Origin: Escherichia phage UAB_Phi78
Sequence record: GU595417
Reading direction: 5' to 3' (one strand)
Length of the DNA: 43,984 nucleotides
Shown piece after piece: positions 521-31,508 of the stretch (position 1 is its first letter; each line of letters opens with the position of its first letter). Under the pieces are notes generated by a model. That model saw only the letters and a list, made by a program, of their open reading frames with translations, was not told where the DNA came from and ran no database searches. The position numbers were made by a program, and so were the translations under genes.

Positions 521-536
521 GTCCAACACGTTAGAC
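521..536 (-). repeat. dispersed 16-bp near-palindromic element (GTCTAACGTGTTGGAC family), inverted copy
   Basis: gtccaacacgttagac is the exact reverse complement of the core found at 6253, 6424 and elsewhere. Confidence 0.7.
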
Positions 537-569: not shown

Positions 570-598
570 TTGACAAGGTAGGTTTAGTGTAATACTAT
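570..598 (+). promoter_or_regulatory. candidate host sigma70 early promoter
   Basis: TTGACA (570-575), 17-bp spacer, TACTAT (593-598), upstream of the first early ORF. Confidence 0.45.
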
Positions 599-726: not shown

Positions 727-1014
727 ATGGCTTTAATTAGTATGAAGAAGTTAAACACGGGAGAGGCTCTTAACCTATTTAACTCCGAGGAGTGGGATCT
801 ATCTAAAGGTGTATATACTTGCCCTTGCTTCAAACGAAATAAGGAAACAGGTGAAGTTTTGCGTTTGCCTGATAAGGTAAAAGTAGATTACTTTATACAT
901 ATGAAAGGTAATGCTTCTCTTAACAGATTGCACATACAAAAGAGCGCAGCTAAATCTATAGCATCTTTGTTGTGTAAACAATTAAAGGATATAAAAGAGA
1001 TACCAAACTATTAA
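727..1014 (+). CDS. hypothetical early protein (95 aa)
   Basis: ORF with RBS-like aaaggtga upstream; first gene after the candidate early promoter. Confidence 0.55.
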   Translation: MALISMKKLNTGEALNLFNSEEWDLSKGVYTCPCFKRNKETGEVLRLPDKVKVDYFIHMKGNASLNRLHIQKSAAKSIASLLCKQLKDIKEIPNY

Positions 1015-1126
1015 AGATATGGTCGGCGCAAGCTGGCCTATCAAGACACAACCTAGCTCTTTAACAATTTGCTTAGTGTAACCTATGTAAGCCGTGGTTA
1101 ATTACTTATTGAATGAGGAATTAACT

Positions 1127-1306
1127 ATGACAAGACTGTACAAAGATGATTCAAGCGGCGCTTATTACACACTTTGCGGGAGGACTTTAATACTTCTCAA
1201 TGGTGCAACAGGTAGACGTCTTATCTCTTATCTTGCTACACATAGAGCATGTATACATAGTGGTTTGCAGCTAGTTGGTAATAACTTTAAGAGGAAGCAA
1301 CTATGA
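1127..1306 (+). CDS. hypothetical early protein (59 aa)
   Basis: In-frame ATG at 1127 preceded by GAGGA RBS; the track ORF 1094..1306 probably starts here. Confidence 0.4.
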   Translation: MTRLYKDDSSGAYYTLCGRTLILLNGATGRRLISYLATHRACIHSGLQLVGNNFKRKQL

Positions 1307-1482
1307 TGACCTTGAACCGTAGAGAAGCTAGCGCAGTCTTTACTATGTTGTGTTGGATGATACGTAACAACGAAATGATGACTGATGATGAGCTAGCGCT
1401 TTACCATCGCTTTCGTAATGAAGGTTGGGATGATACTGTAAACAAGGAACGCAACATACTGAAGGAGCTAATCAATGTTTAA
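1303..1482 (+). CDS. hypothetical early protein (59 aa)
   Basis: ATG overlaps the upstream stop (ATGATG / TGA), with AAGAGGAAG RBS; just under the 60-aa cutoff so absent from the ORF track. Confidence 0.4.
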   Translation: MMTLNRREASAVFTMLCWMIRNNEMMTDDELALYHRFRNEGWDDTVNKERNILKELINV

Positions 1483-1684
1483 ACACACGATATACACGCA
1501 ATGCAGCATCTCCGCAGGTCTTATGAATTGGTGGGGCAAATCTGGGATTAAGTGCTACAATCTGAATGACTCTAGCACTATGTATGAGGTTACTCTCATG
1601 AGAAGATACAACCATGATACGCTGTTATGGGTACTATCTGAATGGGGTATAGACTATGAAGATGTGATTACAGAAGAAATCTAA
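1475..1684 (+). CDS. hypothetical early protein (69 aa)
   Basis: ORF with GAAGGAG RBS, start overlapping the preceding stop. Confidence 0.5.
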   Translation: MFKHTIYTQCSISAGLMNWWGKSGIKCYNLNDSSTMYEVTLMRRYNHDTLLWVLSEWGIDYEDVITEEI

Positions 1685-1692
1685 ATTAGTTG

Positions 1693-1721
1693 TTGACAAC
1701 CACGGCTTACAAGGTTACATT
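1693..1721 (+). promoter_or_regulatory. candidate host sigma70 early promoter
   Basis: TTGACA (1693-1698), 17-bp spacer, TACATT (1716-1721). Confidence 0.4.
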
Positions 1722-1837
1722 AAGCATCAAGAAGTAAAGTTCTTTAACAAATCAGGTGAACTAAGTCGGATAGGTTAACGCATAGGAGGCTTGCGAGTAT
1801 CCTAGAGGGTAACCTAACTAACTAAGAGGATTTAATT

Positions 1838-2194
1838 ATGTCTTACTCTAACATGACTTACGCTAACGTTTATAACCACGCTTACTCCTTGCTGGATGAG
1901 TACATTCGATATGAAGATGTACGCGATTATGACGAAGCAACTGATAAGATTCATGAGGCTGCGGATAATGCGGTTCCCGTCTATTACAAAGATATTTTCT
2001 CAGTAATGGCTAGCGGTGGAATCGATCATGAATTCGAAGATTCAGGCTTAATACCGGACACTAAGGATGTGACACGCATTCTACAAGCTCGCATTTATGA
2101 GCAACTGACTATCGATCTGTATGAAGTGGTAGCAGACTTGCTTAATGAATATCTTGAAGAAGTAGAAGCTGAAGAAGACGAGGAGGAGGAATAA
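1838..2194 (+). CDS. ocr: Ocr-like DNA-mimic anti-restriction protein (T7 gp0.3 homologue)
   Basis: 118-aa strongly acidic protein. The pattern SNMTY...IRY.D.RD...[48 protein letters not shown]...[10 protein letters not shown] plus an acidic tail matches T7 Ocr as I recall it. Good RBS; early-region position. Confidence 0.75.
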
Positions 2195-2314
2195 ATGTTT
2201 GCTGGTAAGCTTTATAACTTCATGTTCTCCGATGGTATCATGCTGAAATGCTCTCTTGCTTTCGCTAAAATGCGAGAGGAGACACTTGGAACTACATATA
2301 CACTAATTATGTGA
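2195..2314 (+). CDS. hypothetical small protein (39 aa)
   Basis: ATG directly after the ocr stop, with GAGGAGGAGGAA upstream; below the track cutoff. Confidence 0.3.
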   Translation: MFAGKLYNFMFSDGIMLKCSLAFAKMREETLGTTYTLIM

Positions 2315-2325
2315 CACTATAAGAG
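2305..2325 (+). promoter_or_regulatory. degenerate SP6-type promoter-like sequence
   Basis: aattatgtgacactataagag shares the GTGACACTATA core with the SP6 consensus but diverges at flanking positions. Confidence 0.3.
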
Positions 2326-2383
2326 GCTTAACAGGTCATCCTTGCGAGGGTGACCGATTAAACCAACTTAAAGAGGTGTAAAC

Positions 2384-2539
2384 ATGAAAACTTTGATTAA
2401 TGTGCTGGCTTGCTTCCTACTTGGTTCTATCATCTTGCTTGCTAGTGCTGGCGTTAAGATTGAATCTCATCATTATGACTTTGGAACTTGCAAACATTTG
2501 ATGGTAGGCGGCGCAATGTGGCATACATGGTATGAGTGA
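2384..2539 (+). CDS. small hydrophobic (membrane or secreted) protein (51 aa)
   Basis: AGAGGTG RBS; N-terminal hydrophobic stretch LACFLLGSIILLASAG. Confidence 0.4.
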   Translation: MKTLINVLACFLLGSIILLASAGVKIESHHYDFGTCKHLMVGGAMWHTWYE

Positions 2540-2601
2540 TTAGCCTATAGCTCATTTAGTGGGCTATGTGATATTCACTTAACTAACTAAGGTAAGCAAT
2601 T

Positions 2602-3477
2602 ATGACTACTGAAAACACTGTTGTATCCGTCCGTGAAGCTGCAACTGCTGAAATCAAGGTACACTTAGATACAATTGGCACCGCCTATCTGAAAGTTGGT
2701 TCCCTCTTGAATGAACTACGCGGTGACTTTGAGAATCAACGTGACTTTCTGTCTTATGTAGAAGCTGAATTCAGCATTAAGAAGGCACAATGCTATAACC
2801 TGATGAACGTAGCGCGTTGCTTTGACGGTGACGAGCGTTTCAAAGGCGTTGCCATGCGTGTCATGCTCGCCCTTATCCCGTTCGCTGATGATGGCGCAAT
2901 CATGGATAAGGCCGCCGGACTTGCCGCTAACGGCGAACTAGACACCAAGGCCGTGAATGCACTTGTATCGCCGTCTAAGCCTGTGAAGGCTGAAGCCAGC
3001 CAATCACAAGCCGAAGACACAAAAGCCGCTGAGAAGGCCGCTCCTGTAGAATCTGAGGCATTACAAAGCGTGCCGCATGAGGTAGCACCGGAAGGCGACG
3101 AATCCGCACCGTGGGAGGATGCGCCAGCGACTACCGAGGCCGCAGCGCCTAAGCTAGATAATGCTGAGAACACCGAGAACGCGGCTATGGCTAGCCTGCT
3201 GGCGCAAATCAAGACGCTGACCGAGCAACTGACCGCAGCAAACGACCGCATCGCAGAACTGACCAGCACACGCGAGACCAAGAAGGCAGCCGCGCCTATG
3301 TTGCCTCAATTCAAATCTAAGTGCTTCTATGCTCGCTTAGGTCTGAGCGCGGAGGAGGCGGAGAAGAAAACAGCAGTTAATAAGGCTAAACGTGAACTTG
3401 TTAAGCTTGGATACGGAGAAGGTCATGAAGCTTGGGATCTGATTCAAGAGGCTGTTACCACACTTACTGAGAAATAA
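2602..3477 (+). CDS. hypothetical early protein (291 aa) with low-complexity Ala/Glu/Lys-rich centre
   Basis: Long ORF with AGGTAAG RBS-like sequence. The antisense ORF 2793..3281 is explained by its biased composition. Confidence 0.65.
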   Translation: MTTENTVVSVREAATAEIKVHLDTIGTAYLKVGSLLNELRGDFENQRDFLSYVEAEFSIKKAQCYNLMNVARCFDGDERFKGVAMRVMLALIPFADDGAIMDKAAGLAANGELDTKAVNALVSPSKPVKAEASQSQAEDTKAAEKAAPVESEALQSVPHEVAPEGDESAPWEDAPATTEAAAPKLDNAENTENAAMASLLAQIKTLTEQLTAANDRIAELTSTRETKKAAAPMLPQFKSKCFYARLGLSAEEAEKKTAVNKAKRELVKLGYGEGHEAWDLIQEAVTTLTEK

Positions 3478-3480
3478 TAG

Positions 3481-3509
3481 TTGACTTATAGAGCGTCATT
3501 AAGTAAGAT
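3481..3509 (+). promoter_or_regulatory. candidate host sigma70 promoter upstream of the RNA polymerase gene
   Basis: TTGACT (3481-3486), 17-bp spacer, TAAGAT (3504-3509), about 40 bp before the RNAP start. Confidence 0.45.
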
Positions 3510-3551
3510 GGCGCTCAATTAAGTTATCTAGCACTTAACGGAGTAAACAAG

Positions 3552-6176
3552 ATGCAAGACTTACACGCTATCCAGCTTCAATTAGAAGAAGAGATGTTTA
3601 ATGGTGGCATTCGTCGGTTCGAAGCAGACCAACAACGCCAGATTGCAGCAGGTAGCGAGAGTGACACGGCATGGAACCGCCGCCTGTTGTCCGAACTTAT
3701 TGCACCTATGGCTGAAGGTATTCAGGCTTATAAAGAGGAGTACGAAGGCAAGAAAGGTCGTGCTCCTCGCGCATTGGCATTCTTACAGTGTGTAGAAAAT
3801 GAAGTTGCAGCATACATCACTATGAAGGTAGTTATGGATATGCTGAATACTGATGTTACTCTTCAGGCTATTGCAATGAGCGTAGCGGAGCGCATCGAAG
3901 ACCAAGTGCGTTTTAGCAAGTTAGAAGGTCACGCCGCTAAATACTTTGAGAAGGTTAAGAAATCACTCAAGGCTAGCCGTACTAAGTCCTATCGTCACGC
4001 GCACAACGTAGCTGTAGTGGCTGAAAAGTCAGTAGCAGAAAAAGACGCTGACTTTGACCGTTGGGAGGCATGGCCCAAAGAGGCTCAATTGCAAATTGGT
4101 ACTACCTTGCTTGAAATCTTAGAGGGCAGCGTATTCTATAACGGTGAACCTGTATTTATGCGTGCTATGCGCACTTATGGCGGCAAGACTATTTACTACT
4201 TACAGACTTCTGAAAGTGTAGGTCAGTGGATTAGCGCGTTCAAAGAGCACGTAGCGCAATTAAGCCCAGCTTATGCTCCTTGCGTAGTCCCTCCTCGTCC
4301 TTGGAAAACCCCATTCAACGGTGGATTCCATACTGAGAAGGTAGCTAGTCGTATTCGCCTTGTAAAAGGCAACCGCGAACATGTGCGCAAGTTAACTCAA
4401 AAGCAGATGCCAAAGGTTTATAAGGCTATCAATGCCCTACAGAATACGCAATGGCAAATCAACAAGGACGTATTAGCAGTTATTGAGGAAGTGATTCGCT
4501 TAGACCTCGGTTATGGTGTGCCGTCCTTCAAGCCCCTGATTGACAAGGAGAACAAGCCAGCTAACCCTGTGCCTGTTGAATTCCAGCACCTGCGCGGTCG
4601 TGAACTGAAAGAAATGCTCTCCCCTGAGCAGTGGCAACAATTTATCAACTGGAAAGGTGAGTGTGCCCGCCTGTATACCGCAGAAACTAAGCGCGGTTCA
4701 AAGTCCGCCGCCGTTGTTCGCATGGTAGGGCAGGCCCGTAAATATAGCACCTTTGAATCCATTTACTTCGTGTACGCAATGGACAGCCGTTCCCGTGTAT
4801 ACGCGCAGTCTAGCACGCTCTCTCCGCAGTCTAACGACTTAGGCAAGGCATTACTCCGCTTTACCGAAGGACGCCCTGTAGACAGCGTAGAGGCGCTTAA
4901 ATGGTTCTGCGTGAATGGCGCTAACCTTTGGGGGTGGGACAAGAAAATTTTTGATGTACGCGTGTCTAACGTGTTGGACGAAGAGTTCCAGGATATGTGC
5001 CGCGACATCGCCGCAGACCCTCTCACGTTCACTCAATGGGCCAAAGCGGACGCGCCTTATGAATTCCTCGCATGGTGCTTTGAGTACGCTCAATACCTTG
5101 ACTTAGTAGAGGAAGGAAGGGCCGACGAGTTCCGCACACACCTGCCAGTACATCAGGACGGTTCCTGCTCCGGTATTCAGCACTATAGCGCTATGCTTCG
5201 CGATGAAGTAGGGGCCAAGGCTGTTAACCTGAAACCGTCCGATACGCCGCAGGATATTTACGGGGCGGTAGCGCAGGTTGTTATCAAGAAGAATGCGCTA
5301 TACATGGATGCAGACGATGCAACTACGTTTACTTCTGGTAGCGTAACACTGTCCGGTGCAGAACTGCGAGCAATGGCTAGCGCATGGGATAGCATTGGTA
5401 TTACCCGCAGCTTAACCAAAAAGCCAGTGATGACCTTGCCTTATGGTTCTACTCGCTTAACTTGCCGTGAATCTGTGATTGACTACATCGTAGACTTAGA
5501 GGAGAAAGAGGCGCAGAAGGCAGTAGCAGAAGGGCGGACGGCAAACAAGGTTCATCCGTTTGAAGACGACCGTCAAGACTACCTGACTCCGGGCGCAGCA
5601 TATAACTACATGACGGCATTAATCTGGCCTTCTATTTCTGAGGTAGTTAAGGCACCAATTGTAGCGATGAAGATGATACGCCAGCTTGCACGCTTTGCAG
5701 CGAAACGCAATGAAGGGCTGATGTACACCCTGCCTACTGGCTTCATCTTAGAACAGAAGATTATGGCAACCGAGATGTTACGTGTGCGTACCTGCCTGAT
5801 GGGTGATATCAAGATGTCGCTTCAGGTTGAAACGGATATAGTAGATGAAGCTGCTATGATGGGCGCAGCAGCACCTAACTTCGTACACGGTCATGATGCA
5901 AGTCACCTTATCCTTACCGTATGTGAATTGGTAGACAAAGGGGTAACTAGTATCGCGGTAATCCACGACTCTTTCGGCACTCATGCCGACAACACTCTCA
6001 CTCTTAGAGTGGCACTTAAAGGGCAGATGGTTGCAATGTATAGTGAAGGCCATGCACTTCAGAAATTACTGGACGAGCACGAAGATCGTTGGATGGTTGA
6101 TACTGGCATCGAAGTGCCTGAGCAAGGGGAGTTTGACCTTAACGAAATCATGGAATCTGAATACGTGTTTGCCTAA
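3552..6176 (+). CDS. single-subunit DNA-directed RNA polymerase (T7/SP6 type)
   Basis: 874 aa; T7-RNAP-like motifs [19 protein letters not shown] and HDSFGTH and a C-terminal ...YVFA end; 874 aa matches the known length of SP6 RNAP. Confidence 0.97.
4964..4979 (+). repeat. 16-bp near-palindromic element embedded in the RNAP coding sequence
   Basis: gtctaacgtgttggac, translated in frame as SNVLD. Confidence 0.7.
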
Positions 6177-6194
6177 TAGATTAATAAACATACA

Positions 6195-6223
6195 GGTCAG
6201 CCTTCGGGCTGGCCTTTTCTTTC
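6195..6223 (+). terminator. intrinsic terminator after the RNAP gene
   Basis: 8-bp GC-rich stem (ggtcagcc / ggctggcc) with a UUCG tetraloop, followed by ttttctttc. Confidence 0.7.
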
Positions 6224-6252
6224 ACCTACTACTTGTAACATTTCATTAACAA

Positions 6253-6268
6253 GTCTAACGTGTTGGAC
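6253..6268 (+). repeat. 16-bp near-palindromic element
   Basis: gtctaacgtgttggac, 10 bp upstream of a promoter-like sequence. Confidence 0.7.
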
Positions 6269-6277
6269 ACGATGCGG

Positions 6278-6298
6278 ATTTAAGGGACACTCTAGGAC
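6278..6298 (+). promoter_or_regulatory. degenerate SP6-type promoter-like sequence
   Basis: atttaagggacactctaggac against the consensus atttaggtgacactatagaag. Confidence 0.35.
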
Positions 6299-6423
6299 TA
6301 ACCGTCGGAGACGGAAAGTAATAGGTAGTAATAGGAAGTAGTAGGTAAGTAAGGTAACTATAGGTTACTTAGGTTACTTCTTCCTATTACCTCCTTCTTA
6401 ATAGGGAGGGCAGACACTAGGTT

Positions 6424-6439
6424 GTCTAACGTGTTGGAC
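6424..6439 (+). repeat. 16-bp near-palindromic element
   Basis: gtctaacgtgttggac, 8 bp upstream of the promoter at 6447. Confidence 0.7.
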
Positions 6440-6446
6440 AGAACCT

Positions 6447-6467
6447 ATTTACGTGACACTATTGAAC
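6447..6467 (+). promoter_or_regulatory. SP6-type phage promoter (variant)
   Basis: atttacgtgacactattgaac; close to consensus, upstream of the HNH and primase genes. Confidence 0.55.
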
Positions 6468-6492
6468 AAGATTAAACTTTCAAGGAGGTAAC

Positions 6493-6903
6493 ATGCGTAA
6501 ATCATTAGCTCAAATGGTAGAGCAAGCAGGTTATACTATACATGCAGACGGTACTATCACAGGTAAGCGCGGAAATATCTTGAAGCCTTGGCTTCAGACT
6601 TCCGGCTATCAGGTTGTGAACATTGTGTTCAAGAAGGGAACAAGAACCACAACACTTGTGCATCGTATTATCGCAAGTAAATACTGCCCATGCTCAGATC
6701 AACTAGCTAATGATGTAAACCACAAGGACGGAGACAAGACCAATAACGTCTCCTCTAATCTGGAATGGATTACACGCAGACAGAACCGCAACCACTACCT
6801 TGGGTTTGAAGATTACATGACACTTACGGCAAACGATGCCCGTAGAAAGAACAATGAGCGTACTATCGCTCGTCGTAAATTACTTAAACAACTTAATAAG
6901 TGA
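6493..6903 (+). CDS. HNH homing endonuclease
   Basis: AAGGAGGT RBS; HNH-family motif VNHKDGDKTNN...NLEWIT; free-standing between the RNAP and primase genes. Confidence 0.8.
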   Translation: MRKSLAQMVEQAGYTIHADGTITGKRGNILKPWLQTSGYQVVNIVFKKGTRTTTLVHRIIASKYCPCSDQLANDVNHKDGDKTNNVSSNLEWITRRQNRNHYLGFEDYMTLTANDARRKNNERTIARRKLLKQLNK

Positions 6904-7040: not shown

Positions 7041-9020
7041 ATGGCGATTGTGAACAACATTCCTTGCCCTGAGTGCCAACGCAACGGACATGATAAATCG
7101 GGCAATCACCTCATGATATTTGAGGATGGCGCTGGTTACTGTAACCGTGGTCACTTCCATAATAGTGGTCGGCCCTACTACCACAAACCCGAAGGTGGCA
7201 TAGAAATCACTGAGCTTCCTATTACTGGCAACATTAAGTATACACCTTCACAGTTCCGTGAACTTGAAAAGGAAGGGAAGATAAGCGACCCTAAGCTGCG
7301 CGCCATTGCACTTGGCGGTATGCGTATGAAAGATCGTTGGGAGGTGATGAATGACGAAGAAAGGGCGGAGCAAGAAGCAGAATGGCAGCTTGACGTTGAG
7401 TGGTTCCTTGAACTTAAAAGGAAGAACCTTGTATCACGACACATTCGCGGAGACATTTGCGCCCTCTATGATGTCCGAGTCGGTCATGATGGAGAAGGCA
7501 AGGTTAACAGGCATTACTACCCTCGCTTCGAAGGTGGCAAACTTGTAGGCGCTAAGTGCCGGACGCTACCTAAAGACTTTAAGTTTGGACACCTAGGTAA
7601 ATTGTTCGGCAACCAAGACATGTTCGGCATGAACACAATGTCTAACGTGTTGGACAAGGGACGCCGTAAAGATACCCTGCTCATAGTAGGTGGTGAACTG
7701 GATGCCTTGGCCGCACAACAGATGCTTCTGGATTCTGCCAAAGGCACGAAGTGGGAAGGGCAACCCTATCATGTGTGGTCTATCAACAAGGGCGAGGCTT
7801 GCCTTGAAGAGATCGTGCAGAACCGTGAGCACATCTCACAATTCAAGAAGATTATGTGGGGCTTCGACGGCGATGAGGTAGGGCAGAAGCTGAACCAACA
7901 AGCGGCCCGCCTATTCCACGGTAAGTCTTATATCCTTGAGTACCCTGCTGGCTGCAAGGACGCTAACAAGGCGCTTATGGCTGGCAAATCTAAGGAGTTC
8001 GTCGATGCATGGTTCAATGCCAAGTCGTCAGATGAGGTCTTCGGTAGCCAGATTAAATCCATCGCATCTCAAAGGGATAAGCTGAAGGCTGCACGACCGG
8101 AACCGGGATTGTCTTGGCCTTGGCCTAAGCTGAACAAGATAACCCTTGGCATCCGTAAGCATCAGCTAATCATCGTCGGCGCTGGTTCTGGTGTAGGTAA
8201 GACGGAGTTCCTCCGCGAAGTAGTGAAGCATCTCATTGAAGAACACGGTGAATCTGTCGGTATTATCTCTACGGAAGACCCGATGGTTAAGGTCTCCCGC
8301 GCATTCATTGGTAAGTGGATAGATAAGCGTATTGAACTACCTCCAACCAATGACCCAAGGGAAGATGGCTACCGTGAGGTATTCGACTACACGGAGGAAG
8401 AGGCCAACGCTGCTATCGACTACGTTGCTGACACTGGTAAGCTGTTCGTGGCTGACCTTGAAGGTGACTATTCAATGGAGAAGGTAGAGCAGACTTGCCT
8501 TGAGTTCGAGGCAATGGGTATTTCCAACATCATCATTGATAACTTAACAGGAATTAAATTAGATGAACGAAATTTTGGTGGTAAAGTTGGTGCGCTTGAT
8601 GAGTGCGTCAAAAGAATCGGCACTATCAAAGACCGACATCCGGTTACTATCTTCCTTGTCTCGCACCTTACACGTCCTTCGGGGCAACGTACCTCACACG
8701 AAGAAGGTGGCGAGGTTATCCTTTCTGACTTCCGAGGCTCAGGAGCTATCGGATTCTGGGCTTCTTACGCCTTGGGGATTGAGCGTAATACAAGGGCTGA
8801 AACGCTTGATGAAAGGACTACCACGTACATCTCATGTGTCAAAGACCGAGACCAAGGCATCTACACTGGCACTAAGGTGATGCTTAAAGGCGATGTTAGT
8901 ACAGGTAGATTGATGGAACCACAAGCACGTACTAGGTCATTTGATACAGGCGCTCCAAAAGAGCAAGCTGTACCTGATGAATTAGGTGACACTATAGAAG
9001 ATAACACACAGGAGTTTTAA
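7041..9020 (+). CDS. DNA primase/helicase (T7 gp4-like)
   Basis: N-terminal zinc ribbon CPECQ...CNRGHFH, Walker A GAGSGVGKT, and an acidic C-terminal tail ending ...DNTQEF. The track ORF begins at an upstream GTG (7017); ATG 7041 with GGAGG upstream is preferred. Confidence 0.93.
   Translation: MAIVNNIPCPECQRNGHDKSGNHLMIFEDGAGYCNRGHFHNSGRPYYHKPEGGIEITELPITGNIKYTPSQFRELEKEGKISDPKLRAIALGGMRMKDRWEVMNDEERAEQEAEWQLDVEWFLELKRKNLVSRHIRGDICALYDVRVGHDGEGKVNRHYYPRFEGGKLVGAKCRTLPKDFKFGHLGKLFGNQDMFGMNTMSNVLDKGRRKDTLLIVGGELDALAAQQMLLDSAKGTKWEGQPYHVWSINKGEACLEEIVQNREHISQFKKIMWGFDGDEVGQKLNQQAARLFHGKSYILEYPAGCKDANKALMAGKSKEFVDAWFNAKSSDEVFGSQIKSIASQRDKLKAARPEPGLSWPWPKLNKITLGIRKHQLIIVGAGSGVGKTEFLREVVKHLIEEHGESVGIISTEDPMVKVSRAFIGKWIDKRIELPPTNDPREDGYREVFDYTEEEANAAIDYVADTGKLFVADLEGDYSMEKVEQTCLEFEAMGISNIIIDNLTGIKLDERNFGGKVGALDECVKRIGTIKDRHPVTIFLVSHLTRPSGQRTSHEEGGEVILSDFRGSGAIGFWASYALGIERNTRAETLDERTTTYISCVKDRDQGIYTGTKVMLKGDVSTGRLMEPQARTRSFDTGAPKEQAVPDELGDTIEDNTQEF
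7640..7655 (+). repeat. 16-bp near-palindromic element embedded in the primase coding sequence
   Basis: gtctaacgtgttggac, again translated as SNVLD. Confidence 0.7.
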
Positions 9021-9121
9021 ATGGATGAACTAGGCTTTTGGTTGTTCATGGTTGTATGTATCGTTATGATTAACCTAGACAAACTTGCCATGCTAATTAA
9101 GTAGTGTCCTTATCAGGGCTT

Positions 9122-9137
9122 GTCCAACATGTTGGAC
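9122..9137. repeat. 16-bp element, perfect-palindrome variant
   Basis: gtccaacatgttggac is its own reverse complement. Confidence 0.7.
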
Positions 9138-9176
9138 AGGCTCTTATTAAGCACATTAACTAACTGGAGATTAACT

Positions 9177-9869: not shown

Positions 9870-10062
9870 CAGCAAGCACAGCCTGAAGTTCCTTGAGCAG
9901 CATGAAGACCTTGCAGCAAAGGTAACTAACCAAGCATTCCTGTTTGCACAACTCACACTGGCTGAAGCTAAGAAGAACAGCCTTACTCGTGAACAGATTA
10001 TTAAGGAAGGTTGCCGTGGTGCAACTCGTCGTATTAAGAACCACAGAAGTGGTGCTCGCTAG
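9856..10062 (+). CDS. hypothetical protein (68 aa)
   Basis: ATG 9856 with GGAGGAA RBS; start overlaps the end of the upstream gene. Confidence 0.5.
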   Translation: MSRNDSKHSLKFLEQHEDLAAKVTNQAFLFAQLTLAEAKKNSLTREQIIKEGCRGATRRIKNHRSGAR

Positions 10063-10079
10063 TTAATAAGTCGTGGCTT

Positions 10080-10095
10080 GTCTAACATGTTGGAC
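10080..10095 (+). repeat. 16-bp near-palindromic element
   Basis: gtctaacatgttggac. Confidence 0.7.
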
Positions 10096-10220
10096 AGGTC
10101 ACTATCATATTAATTGGAGGAATTACTGTATGATTAATTACGATTCTGATTGGGATTACGAAGATTCATTACAGCCTGAACCGGAGACACCAGACTACAA
10201 GTTTGAAACGGAGGCAATGT

Positions 10221-14687: not shown

Positions 14688-14703
14688 GTCTAACGCGTTG
14701 GAC
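14688..14703 (+). repeat. 16-bp near-palindromic element
   Basis: gtctaacgcgttggac, 16 bp upstream of the promoter at 14720. Confidence 0.7.
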
Positions 14704-28505: not shown

Positions 28506-31442
28506 ATGGCAATTGAACGTCAAGCTGTACAGGGCTTACGCCGAGTGCAGTCTACTGGTGGGCCAAGTGCTGCTAGTTTTGCGACTCGTCAGGTTGGGGT
28601 GCAAGAGACTAGTGCATCTGGTAGCCGCTTTCTTGAAGACCTTGTAAATGCTGCTGGCAGTTTGGCGACTGTCACTACTTCTATCCTGAACCAAAGGGTG
28701 GAAGATGATAAGGTACGACAATACAACCGGGCGTTAACTGGCCTGATGCCAACTGAAGATGCAACGGTTGGTGGCGCTCGCGCACACATGCTTGTCAGCT
28801 TACAAAATGACATCATCGCGCAAACCATGCAACTGTCCGATGATGCACAGCGTTTTGATGGTGATGACAGCCAATGGGAAGATCACGTTATCAACGCACG
28901 CATGGCTGTTCAAGACCGCCTGTGGGATACCTACCCTGAACTGCGTGGAGATAAGGAGTCCATGCGGGTAGTAACTAACGCCTTCATGGAGCAGCAACCT
29001 AAGATCTTTGCAGCAAGAGAGACTGCCAAGTTGAAGCAGGAAGCTGAATCTCGTATCAAGTCTATGGAATCTCGCATTCTGTTGGCTACACGTGATGTTC
29101 CTGGAGAAGCTATGGGTGATGCCTTGAATCAGTTGCAGAAAGAAGCTATGGCTATGCAAATCACCAAGCAGGAGTTTGATGCGCTGGTTTCTCAGTTGGC
29201 ATCTAATCGTGCAGCTATTGGTGATGATTCTATGATTCAAGGAACCAAGGCTCTCAAGGATGAGAATGGAGTGTCACTTTATGACCGAGTAGGTCAGTTG
29301 CAGACAGGTGAGATTCAGGCCAACCGAACATGGGCGGCGCAGAACCAAGTGGCGCTCTTTGAGAAGAAGGATGCTGCAATCAAAGCCTTTGAGGCTGGAC
29401 AGCTTAACCGTGAGCAGCTACTTCAGGTTATGCAGAACCATAATGAAATCTCAGGGGGCACTGCTTGGTCTGATAGCGAGATCAAATCTTTATTTGATAG
29501 GCAAGCTAAGGTTCGTGCTGAGTCTGCCAAACTAGAAGACTTGGTGGCCCGTGGTGAACATGGCTCTCCTTTAGGCTTGCAAGACATCAGCAAGGAAGAC
29601 CGCAAGGCGTATGCTGGTGCATTGGTTGATGCCTACACCAAGTTGGCCAATGACGAGATAACTCGTACCGGAGCTACTGGTGAAGAAGCTGAGGCCATCC
29701 GTGGACGCTATGAGCAGATGCGATACGCCAAGCTGGGGCAGCAGTTGATTGAAGACCCCATCATCAAAGAACGATATGGCTCGCTAATGCAACTATCTTC
29801 TGCCAACCTGAAAGATATGAAGGTTGAACCTGAAGCATTACAGACTATTATGCGAGCACGTGATTCTATCCCGGAAGATGCACGCCGGGCGGTGATGGGT
29901 GACAAGGAGTATGCCTTTGCGGAGAACTATGACTTGGCTACACGCATGGGTTATACGCCGGGGCAGGCCATAGAGTTTGCACAGAATGCATCGCGTGGCG
30001 ATAAGCTTCCCGGTTCTGTTATGAAAGAATTGAATGATGAAGTCGATGGTGTAGTTAGCGATGTGGCTAGTGGTAGCTGGCTTACGCGTGGCGACAACAT
30101 GAGCGACATGGGACGTGATCTTATGTTAGAAGAGGCAAACCAGATTGCCCGCTCTATGAAGGTTGCAGGTCATAACAATGACACCATTAAGCGACATCTT
30201 AAATCTTTCCTACAGAATCAGTACACTCAACTATCTGAAGGTTTCTTCACTCAAGGTGTTCTGGTCAAAGGTGATGTGAGAACGCTAGGTGACACTATAG
30301 GCACCAACCAAGGAGACGTACCTACGGTATTACGTCAGTACCTTGACAACCATAAGCAAGCCTTGCTGGATGCATCTGGCGGTATGGAAGAAGGAGACTT
30401 GTACTTTGATGTAGACTCTAAGCGCGGTATGTTTACAATACGTGCTGGTTCTGGTCGTGTACCAGTTACTCCAGCTATGCCTTTGTCTGAAATCAAAGGA
30501 CAGGACTTACTGAAGGAGCACTACGAGAAGGCAGTGAAAGAGCGCGATGAGGCTAAGAAGAACTTTGAAGCTAATCAGATGCGTATGTGGGGTGCTGGCG
30601 GGTATCAAGCTCCTGCACCAGAAAAGACTACAGCTAAGACTGTAGGTTCCCGTGGTATCGCTGACTTCCTCATGTCACCAGCCTTTGCATCAGGTGAGAA
30701 TCTACCTTCCAACTTTGAATTCAACTACAAGAGGAATAACATGGACTTCTACAATTATGTAGCTAAGACCGAGAACGGGGCCAACGTAGGGTTCGACCGA
30801 GTAGCTGGTGTATACACTCCGTACAAAGATGCACACGGTCAATCTGTGGGCTACGGTCACTTCCTCACGGAGGAGGAGAAGAAGAATGGATACATCACTA
30901 TTGGCGAAGATAAAGTACCATTTGCACCGGGACAATCTCAGTTAACACCTGAGCGTGCAATGCGCCTGCTTGAGCAGGACATGAAGAGTCACGTACCTAG
31001 CACAAAGGATTGGGCTGTACCTTTTGATGCAATGCATCCGGGAGTGCAACGTGGCCTCATGGACTTGTCTTATAACTTAGGCAAGGCTGGCATCAAGAAT
31101 GCGCCAAAGGCTTATGCAGCATTCAAGGCTGGCAAGTTCACTGATGGGTTTATCGAGATGCTGTCTACTGCATCTACTGAAGGTAAGCGCAGTTCAGGTC
31201 TGCTAGTTCGCAGGGCAGAAGCCTATAACCTTGCACAAAGCGGAGGTGCTGTTCCTAAGATTAGCGAAGTGGAGACGAGGGAAGATGGCTCCATGTACGT
31301 TAGGTTCTCAGGTAACATGTCAGAAGCATTTGTGAGCAAGTCTATCCTTGGCAAGATAGGCAAAGATGGGTGGATGGAAGTCTACCAGCCTAAAGCAGGA
31401 GCACTTGCAAGCGGCACCAAAGTGGGTCGCATTAAACTGTAG
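28506..31442 (+). CDS. internal virion protein with C-terminal lysozyme-like domain
   Basis: 978 aa; YKDAHGQSVGYGHFLT matches the T4-lysozyme-family pattern YKD..G....G.GH.LT. Confidence 0.8.
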   Translation: MAIERQAVQGLRRVQSTGGPSAASFATRQVGVQETSASGSRFLEDLVNAAGSLATVTTSILNQRVEDDKVRQYNRALTGLMPTEDATVGGARAHMLVSLQNDIIAQTMQLSDDAQRFDGDDSQWEDHVINARMAVQDRLWDTYPELRGDKESMRVVTNAFMEQQPKIFAARETAKLKQEAESRIKSMESRILLATRDVPGEAMGDALNQLQKEAMAMQITKQEFDALVSQLASNRAAIGDDSMIQGTKALKDENGVSLYDRVGQLQTGEIQANRTWAAQNQVALFEKKDAAIKAFEAGQLNREQLLQVMQNHNEISGGTAWSDSEIKSLFDRQAKVRAESAKLEDLVARGEHGSPLGLQDISKEDRKAYAGALVDAYTKLANDEITRTGATGEEAEAIRGRYEQMRYAKLGQQLIEDPIIKERYGSLMQLSSANLKDMKVEPEALQTIMRARDSIPEDARRAVMGDKEYAFAENYDLATRMGYTPGQAIEFAQNASRGDKLPGSVMKELNDEVDGVVSDVASGSWLTRGDNMSDMGRDLMLEEANQIARSMKVAGHNNDTIKRHLKSFLQNQYTQLSEGFFTQGVLVKGDVRTLGDTIGTNQGDVPTVLRQYLDNHKQALLDASGGMEEGDLYFDVDSKRGMFTIRAGSGRVPVTPAMPLSEIKGQDLLKEHYEKAVKERDEAKKNFEANQMRMWGAGGYQAPAPEKTTAKTVGSRGIADFLMSPAFASGENLPSNFEFNYKRNNMDFYNYVAKTENGANVGFDRVAGVYTPYKDAHGQSVGYGHFLTEEEKKNGYITIGEDKVPFAPGQSQLTPERAMRLLEQDMKSHVPSTKDWAVPFDAMHPGVQRGLMDLSYNLGKAGIKNAPKAYAAFKAGKFTDGFIEMLSTASTEGKRSSGLLVRRAEAYNLAQSGGAVPKISEVETREDGSMYVRFSGNMSEAFVSKSILGKIGKDGWMEVYQPKAGALASGTKVGRIKL
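30282..30303 (+). promoter_or_regulatory. internal SP6-type promoter-like sequence inside the internal virion protein gene
   Basis: acgctaggtgacactataggc matches the consensus core TAGGTGACACTATAG exactly, with a divergent upstream end. Confidence 0.5.
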
Positions 31443-31458
31443 TGTCATACTCAAGGTT

Positions 31459-31474
31459 GTCTAACACGTTGGAC
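31459..31474 (+). repeat. 16-bp near-palindromic element
   Basis: gtctaacacgttggac in the 66-bp gap between the two large internal virion protein genes. Confidence 0.7.
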
Positions 31475-31508
31475 AGCCTTTATGAATGACATTAACTAAG
31501 GAGGTAAC

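Follow-up and report, generated by a model that had tools for sequence, protein, structure and literature searches.

An early-region protein with a predicted ParB/KorB-type fold and a candidate family of palindromic sites in an SP6-like phage

The left end of the genome of Escherichia phage UAB_Phi78 (GU595417; 43,984 bp, the whole of which is called the window here) carries a block of small genes in front of the gene for its single-subunit RNA polymerase (RNAP). A sequence-only reading of positions 727-3477 had described this block as a cluster of uncharacterised early genes that may encode host-takeover or anti-defence functions. In this study we followed up the seven open reading frames (ORFs) concerned, designated A to G, and found that the largest, ORF G, is predicted to contain a ParB/KorB-type DNA-binding domain and is accompanied in the same genome by nine copies of a parS-like palindrome, the sequence of which varies among relatives together with one residue of the predicted recognition helix. 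These observations point to G as a putative regulator of the phage's own genome, while the six smaller ORFs remain candidates for anti-defence work.

Results

The early region of an SP6-like phage

The window is a complete genome of the T7 supergroup, SP6-like (Zindervirus), with all large ORFs on the plus strand, and it is the same as IMG/VR contig UViG_2595698432_000001. Between positions 600 and 3600 it is 98.3% identical to Salmonella phage vB_SenAt-pSL2 (Zindervirus UAB78, hereafter pSL2) and, over part of this length, 80-93% identical to other SP6-like phages. Besides ocr there are, in line with the 'at least seven' of the sequence-only reading, seven plus-strand ORFs of 39-291 amino acids (aa), each with a Shine-Dalgarno sequence, and their early placement was borne out by their position in the left-end block, 5' of the RNAP gene and beside ocr (Table 1). 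The ocr product belongs to the Ocr family with a score of 173.2 bits against a cut-off of 25. Translational coupling through ATGA or TAATG overlaps had been proposed for several of the genes; the start of C does overlap the stop of B as ATGA, but C and D share an 8-nt overlap (ATGTTTAA), the stop of ocr and the start of E abut as TAA-ATG, and a TAATG overlap occurs nowhere. No ORF received a housekeeping assignment. In the records of pSL2, SP6, Kenya-K30 and UAB_Phi78 the same ORFs, ocr excepted, are annotated as hypothetical, and the UAB_Phi78 paper gives them as 'unknown' (PMC4837284); as a set, these uncharacterised early genes are thus already on record in close relatives.

Table 1 Early-region features and palindrome sites in the window
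Feature	Position	Strand	Remarks
Palindrome site 1	521-536		GTCCAACACGTTAGAC; inverted relative to the other sites; 34 bp 5' of the -35 hexamer of the candidate promoter 570-598
Sigma70-like early promoter, best candidate	570-598	+	TTGACA-17-TACTAT; consensus match only
ORF A	727-1014	+	95 aa; basic, isoelectric point (pI) 9.35; first early gene
ORF B	1127-1306	+	59 aa; basic (pI 10.1); ribosome-binding site GAGGAA before ATG 1127
ORF C	1303-1482	+	59 aa; SP6 gp3 family, phrog_9275
ORF D	1475-1684	+	69 aa; SP6 gp4 family, phrog_6403
Sigma70-like promoter, second candidate	1693-1721	+	TTGACA-17-TACATT, 5' of ocr; consensus match only
ocr (DNA-mimic anti-restriction protein)	1838-2194	+	Pfam PF08684, E 1.8e-51; phrog_2568
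ORF E	2195-2314	+	39 aa; SP6 gene 53 family, phrog_11746
SP6-type phage promoter-like sequence	2305-2325	+	AATTATGTGACACTATAAGAG; 4 mismatches to the 21-nt consensus
Stable hairpin	2333-2356	+	3' of the promoter-like sequence; z -3.39
ORF F	2384-2539	+	51 aa; phrog_36247; N-terminal hydrophobic helix/signal-like segment
ORF G	2602-3477	+	291 aa; SP6 gp7/K1-5 gp6 family, phrog_4571
Strong RNA hairpin	3478-3530	+	between G and the RNAP gene; RNase III-site-like
RNAP gene	3552-6176	+	single-subunit RNA polymerase
Palindrome site 2	4964-4979		inside the RNAP gene; encodes VSNVLD
Palindrome site 3	6253-6268		after the RNAP terminator (6194-6215); 10 bp before promoter-like ATTTAAGGGACACTCTAGGA (6279-6299)
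Palindrome site 4	6424-6439		7 bp before the phage promoter 6447-6467
Palindrome site 5	7640-7655		inside the primase/helicase gene; syntenic in SP6, K1-5 and PP1
Palindrome site 6	9122-9137		perfect palindrome TGTCCAACATGTTGGACA; tip of long hairpin, z -6.18
Palindrome site 7	10080-10095		tip of long hairpin, z -5.77
Palindrome site 8	14688-14703		starts right after a stop codon; 16 bp before the phage promoter 14720-14740
Palindrome site 9	31459-31474		intergenic, 35 nt before the start of a large internal-virion-protein gene; tip of long hairpin, z -5.07

ORF G is conserved and has a predicted multidomain architecture

Homologues of G were found in 212 phage records from Molineuxvirinae, Colwellvirinae and Gajwadongvirus, all of them Autographiviridae genomes of 42-48 kb, with hosts among enterobacteria, Erwinia, Pectobacterium, Proteus, Vibrio, Pseudomonas syringae, Marinomonas and Aeromonas. 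In each case the gene belongs to the early block, at most about 1.3 kb 5' of the RNAP gene, and a search of plasmids returned no homologue. An exhaustive representative search gave 128 clusters at 50% identity. The statement that such early genes differ between phages therefore holds for the sporadic ORFs A, B and F but not for G. Many distant homologues, 340-510 aa in length and including one on a Logan contig (SRR20217201), carry an extra N-terminal extension of 70-150 aa without a Pfam match, and one such extended homologue sits 3' of a gene for an S-adenosylmethionine (SAM) lyase, an anti-restriction protein.

On its own, the sequence of G does not match DUF3102 (PF11300) at E<=1, but among 102 aligned homologues Pfam finds this domain in 31 (best E 1.5e-7) and DnaJ in 11. 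An AlphaFold model of the full-length protein (predicted local distance difference test score, pLDDT, 82.9) comprises a helical N-domain (residues 10-122), a linker (125-190), a long helix (191-228) and a C-terminal domain of three helices (235-290). Residues 126-195 are low in complexity and predicted to be disordered (pLDDT about 50). The centre of the protein had been called Ala/Glu/Lys-rich, and its low complexity and its richness in Ala and Glu were confirmed, but Lys is not prominent in this acidic stretch (A 26%, E 17%, P 10%, K 7%). The long helix shows a 3-4 hydrophobic repeat (M195, L198, I202, L205, L209, A212, I216, L219). When modelled alone, residues 10-122 adopt a predicted ParB/KorB-type helix-turn-helix (HTH) fold, and a structure search with the model identified a J-domain fold in residues 235-290; when the whole protein is used for fold searches, the coiled coil and the J domain dominate the matches. 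Sequence searches of the PDB returned nothing with the single G sequence and weak J-domain matches only with a profile. The HPD motif is absent from G, in which the loop between helices II and III reads LGYGEGHEA with GYGEGH in place of HPD, and the canonical motif was found in none of the 102 aligned homologues, YNPD being the closest. ParBc of Pfam matches neither G nor is it among the families listed for its 102 homologues, and Pfam and NCBIfam scans gave no protein kinase domain in G. The absence of recognisable motifs, once taken to apply to the whole block, therefore describes the small ORFs, which match no characterised family, but not G, given the DUF3102 and DnaJ matches of its homologues and the ParB/KorB-type and J-like folds of the models.

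A palindrome family is found in genomes that carry G

Apart from the phage promoter, the most repeated sequence of the window is GTCCAACACGTTAGAC. Allowing up to 3 mismatches, nine sites of the form GTCYAAC-RY-GTTRGAC are present against 0.28 expected, eight of them in the left 15 kb (Table 1). Because a 2-nt loop cannot form, the palindrome core is not a simple hairpin. Like parS and sopC, the palindrome has a 7-2-7 layout, and the variant typical of the K class described below, TGTCTCACGTGAGACA, differs in one base per half-site from canonical parS, which we take to read TGTTTCACGTGAAACA. One Vibrio-phage relative uses GTTTCAC itself.

A de novo palindrome scan of whole genomes covered ten with and three without G. 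All ten G-carrying genomes contain a family of 16- or 17-bp palindromes in 4-10 copies, against at most 2-4 in shuffled sequence: nine copies each in the window, SP6, phiEa100, PP1 and phi-A318, ten in Nerthus, eight in K1-5, seven in ECBP5, five in PM85 and four in CPG1g. In none of the three genomes without G (T7, PHB19 and phiKMV) did the scan find the palindrome family, returning either the quasi-palindromic T7 promoter or nothing.

Positions 5' of the early promoters, within the RNAP and primase genes, around 9-10 and 14-17 kb and between the two large internal-virion-protein genes recur across genera, as do two sites that follow the RNAP terminator. pSL2, SP6 and PST_H2 carry an exact copy of site 1 in the corresponding position, and site 9 is syntenic in SP6, K1-5, PP1 and PM85. 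phiEa100, PP1, phi-A318 and Nerthus likewise have a site inside the RNAP gene, although their half-sites and spacers differ.

A residue of the predicted recognition helix varies with the half-site

The predicted recognition helix of G reads SIKKAQCY-N66-LMNVAR, and its residue 66 varies with the half-site. Phages with GTCYAAC half-sites (the window, SP6, PM85 and PP1) have N or H at this position, and those with GTCTCAC (K1-5, phiEa100, phi-A318 and Nerthus) have K; ECBP5, with GTCTAGT, has the helix KKAWAYRLMKV, and CPG1g, with GTTCGAG, has an unrelated helix. For PP1, the N at residue 66 had been predicted before its sequence was inspected. We then added 38 IMG/VR loci with a G homologue and up to 10 kb of flanking sequence, and all 36 informative loci agree with the rule. 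Among 40 phages, residue 66 is N or H in 17/17 with GTCYAAC sites and K in 23/23 with GTCTCAC sites. Of the 291 alignment columns, 66 and 123 separate both site classes, and column 66 alone is fixed on both sides.

The G protein tree has K as the ancestral residue, with N appearing at the base of the enteric Molineuxvirinae. Vectrevirus (K1-5), a clade about 70% identical to Zindervirus, is nested within the N clade, where it reverted to K and switched its sites, keeping a few GTCYAAC copies. Residue and site thus changed together at least four times, with at least two reciprocal switches, and shared ancestry alone would not readily explain these changes. By copy number, co-occurrence and covariation, all of them at the level of sequence, G has putative cognate palindromes on its own replicon.

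Sites beside promoters and an origin-like region

Three sites end 7-16 bp before phage promoters or promoter-like sequences (6253 before 6279, 6424 before 6447 and 14688 before 14720), and this arrangement recurs in SP6, K1-5, PP1, PM85 and phiEa100, although the promoter sequences differ. Two of these sites belong to the interval 6194-6470, in which the terminator is followed by palindrome 6253, the promoter-like sequence, an inverted repeat, palindrome 6424 and the phage promoter. The inverted repeat, at about 6310-6410, is purine-rich and imperfect, and is flanked by the two palindromes. We take the position and layout of this interval to be those of the primary origin of T7, where two promoters and an AT-rich stretch follow gene 1. 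Right after it lies a 136-aa ORF (6493-6903) with the HNH-like motif NHKDGDKTNN, probably encoding a homing endonuclease; SP6 has no such ORF at this position.

The small ORFs A to F

Scans of Pfam, PHROGs and NCBIfam gave no match for A-F beyond families of unknown function, and PADLOC profiles matched none of A-G to known components of anti-phage defence. With 4, 13 and 6 phage records, respectively, A, B and F are accessory genes of sporadic occurrence, whereas conservation within the SP6/K1-5 lineage is seen for C (100 records), D (42 records) and E. A is represented by 6 clusters among 5.8 billion proteins and leads the early genes wherever it is found, including T7-like PHB19, PST_H2 and an Edwardsiella phage; in a T7-like Studiervirinae phage it lies immediately 5' of ocr. 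For ORF B, an alternative GTG start at 1094 (70 aa) lacks a ribosome-binding site, and ATG 1127 is the start annotated in pSL2 and UAB_Phi78. ORF F is a positional analogue and weak homologue of SP6 gp6 (E 0.004). It would be the small membrane protein that had been recognised from the sequence, and its residues 4-22 indeed form one strongly hydrophobic segment (Kyte-Doolittle 2.41), which, followed by ASA-G, could serve as a membrane anchor or as a signal peptide.

Against diverged relatives, the ratio of nonsynonymous to synonymous substitution (dN/dS) lies between 0.04 and 0.34 for A, C, D, E and G (A 0.14-0.15, C 0.12-0.28, D 0.24-0.34, E 0.04-0.12), indicating purifying selection, and these five are therefore genuine genes; for B and F the available comparators are near-identical or few and distant. 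Compared with pSL2, ORF D has seven nonsynonymous and no synonymous differences, whereas the genes on either side show none. The pattern hints at diversifying change, yet positive selection on ORF D was not significant (about 0.15).

Promoters, hairpins and repeats of the early region

Transcription of the early (class I) block would start with host RNA polymerase reading from the left end. The sigma70 promoters that had been predicted for it did not stand out by number, with 10 sigma70-like matches against 11.0 expected in shuffled sequence. The TTGACA-17-N6 sites at 570 and 1693 are plausible as the best sigma70 candidates, and the sequence around the first is conserved in pSL2 and PST_H2. 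A further match at 3481-3509 was rejected as a promoter, as it overlaps the hairpin 3478-3530 (-23.5 kcal/mol, z -5.55, reached by 0/200 shuffles), and an RNA processing or stability element is more likely.

That this region is host-transcribed agrees with its place at the left end, but the phage promoter-like sequence ahead of F, G and the RNAP gene qualifies the statement. Its core GACACTATA (2313-2321) occurs in 11 copies genome-wide against 0.34 expected, and SP6, pSL2 and Kenya-K30 retain the element in the corresponding position. From about position 2305, the phage polymerase may thus transcribe part of the early block as well, and F, G and its own gene may be read from this element.

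Just inside the left terminal repeat, at positions 256-380, CTTAGT-containing repeats are arrayed with a period of 12 bp, probably forming a T7-type post-terminal-repeat array. Across the genome CTTAGTG is overrepresented (19 against 7.4 expected), with clusters at both genome ends. These repeats had been considered as sites for G and were set aside once the palindrome family emerged. A motif (G)CTCTTTAAYAAT occurs in the long intergenic regions ahead of A (~668-682), B (~1057-1071) and ocr (~1741-1752), and the copy before the first gene is invariant in SP6, Kenya-K30 and PST_H2. An Rfam scan of the whole window matched zero families.

Discussion

Taken together, the data argue for G as a ParB/KorB-type DNA-binding regulator of the phage's own genome, encoded in the early block of an SP6-like phage, an interpretation to which we assign a probability of roughly 60%. 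The predicted fold, combined with palindromes in the phage genome, leads to self-regulation rather than an attack on the host. G would dimerise through its heptad-pattern helix, and its HTH would bind the 16-bp parS-like palindrome GTCYAAC-RY-GTTRGAC, with GTCTAACGTGTTGGAC as the putative target duplex. Since sites lie beside promoters, we infer a KorB-like multi-site regulator of phage transcription; like KorB of plasmid RK2, G would control transcription and/or the initiation of replication from several sites, the latter possibly at the two promoters that follow the RNAP gene. The C-terminal J-like domain would dock a partner, for which the Hsp70/DnaK system is the obvious candidate.

A wider formulation is more tentative, and we rate it somewhat below an even chance. 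It holds that Molineuxvirinae, Colwellvirinae and Gajwadongvirus share a genome-wide control system, made up of a protein with a ParB/KorB fold and a degenerate J domain and of about nine co-evolving palindromes, some of them immediately 5' of phage-RNAP promoters and at the counterpart of the T7 origin. This system would time class II transcription and/or replication initiation and take over the role of T7 gp0.7, gp2 and lysozyme. The conserved, predicted protein-operator pair is apparently undescribed. The 16/17-mers and ParB/parS in Autographiviridae are unmentioned in the literature searched, a scope that leaves out the genome papers of Dobbins 2004 and Scholl et al. 2004, which could hold them or the gene 6 promoter; DUF3102 appears there in protein lists only, and the accessory-gene preprint of Silas et al. 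does not mention SP6-like phages.

The sequence-only reading would instead make all seven ORFs, including G, effectors of host takeover or anti-defence; G would then fill the slot of T7 gp0.7. The ORFs are early and adjoin ocr, A, B and F occur sporadically and have been exchanged horizontally between subfamilies, G occupies the position of the T7 gp0.7 kinase, and G homologues at other loci have anti-restriction genes (a SAM lyase) nearby. However, A-F match no characterised family, G has no kinase domain, and the Vibrio phage phi-A318 encodes a G homologue beside a separate kinase gene. For G itself, such a role is also at odds with its conservation across the 212 records instead of variability, with its predicted fold and with its covariation with inferred targets in the phage genome, so that we consider the proposal unlikely for the block as a whole. 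For the six small ORFs A-F a host-takeover or anti-defence role is possible, without positive support from the family scans.

Several observations weigh against G as a ParB/KorB-type regulator. The genomes lacking G are a sample of three, all from other subfamilies, and about four independent evolutionary events underlie the covariation. Base specificity in KorB comes from residues outside the HTH, for which reason a base contact by residue 66 is our inference. G has no N-terminal ParB/Srx-like CTPase domain, its DNA-binding domain starting at residue 10; both the whole protein and the N-domain are acidic (pI 4.8); the chaperone Raf1 is a comparable structural match to the N-domain; and, lacking HPD, the J-like domain cannot be a canonical DnaK activator. 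At the RNA level, two or three sites per genome lie in long hairpins with z between -4 and -7 (only the flanks being shuffled), eight of nine sites in the window and in SP6 are oriented for a G.U pair in RNA, and in SP6-type phages the transcribed sites all share this G.U-giving orientation, which hints at an additional or alternative role at the RNA level.

In its strongest form, this last point would make the palindromes RNA elements unrelated to G, acting as tips of RNase III hairpins or in pausing or termination, with the covariation being a product of shared ancestry. The capped hairpins of the window (9100-9159, 10058-10117 and 31437-31496) resemble T7 RNase III sites, sites at hairpin tips are likewise present at the syntenic positions of SP6, K1-5, PM85 and PP1, with some in phi-A318 and Nerthus, and the hairpin-capped sites precede start codons by 35-130 nt. 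Nevertheless, most sites are bare palindromes whose flanks do not pair, one lies 5' of the early promoters and two are inside conserved coding sequence. The copies conserve sequence and not pairing alone, RNA structure does not need spacers of 2 or 3 bp between fixed half-sites, and the reversal in Vectrevirus couples a single helix residue to the change of half-site, all of which makes this explanation improbable. Equally doubtful is a chaperone hijacker whose J-like domain engages DnaK/DnaJ and whose N-domain binds a protein client as Raf1 does, since the J-domain fold and the acidic pI would fit it, but HPD is absent in all 102 homologues inspected and the co-occurrence and covariation of the palindromes have no place in it.

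If G is indeed such a regulator, the ParB/parS recognition module would have been reused in a strictly lytic virus. The early-to-middle switch and the start of replication in SP6, K1-5, K1E and their relatives are not understood, because T7 gp0.7, gp2 and lysozyme are lacking there, although SP6 RNAP serves as a standard reagent and therapy makes use of K1-specific and Klebsiella/Salmonella phages. An early putative DNA-binding protein with a defined operator, the specificity of which is apparently set by residue 66, offers a concrete handle on this switch and, beyond the phages studied here, a structural and functional lead for DUF3102, a Pfam domain widespread in prophages. The small ORFs A-F likewise stay proper candidates for anti-defence work, being real genes, of which A is horizontally exchanged and always the first to enter the cell.

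Comparison with known systems

In its layout the early region resembles that of T7, with genes 0.3-0.7 in the same slot: ocr is first or second, small genes and a larger gene come next, the RNAP gene follows, and RNase III-like hairpins separate genes in both. In contrast, ocr is the sole homologue between the two, the T7 kinase occupies the place of G, and neither T7 nor T7-like PHB19 has G or the palindrome family.

Among multi-site regulators, the closest parallel is KorB of RK2 (IncP), a ParB-family global repressor with 12 palindromic OB operators. G differs in lacking the N-terminal ParB/CTPase domain and the C-terminal dimerisation domain of KorB, in place of which come an acidic linker, a heptad helix and a J-like domain. 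It is encoded by a lytic phage and not by a plasmid, the promoters concerned serve a single-subunit phage RNAP, and no partner of the KorA/IncC type is annotated for it: neither a ParA/IncC-type ATPase nor a KorA-type co-repressor appears in the annotation of the SP6, K1-5, PP1 and phiEa100 records. Compared with the ParB-parS systems (Spo0J, SopB-sopC and P1 ParB), the G system has no ParA, no CTP-binding domain and no need for partition, and some of its lineages use a 3-bp spacer.

J-domain proteins are known from phages, Rki of RB43 being one. With HPD-less J-like proteins such as Tim16/Pam16 and with phage J-proteins, G shares the three-helix J fold, a basic helix II and A-x-R-x-L, but it has GYGEGH instead of HPD, and its J-like domain is fused to a predicted DNA-binding domain. 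Because G lacks both the ParB CTPase domain and HPD, we file it neither as a ParB nor as a J-protein; judged from the structural models, it is a new arrangement of ParB-type HTH and J-like modules.

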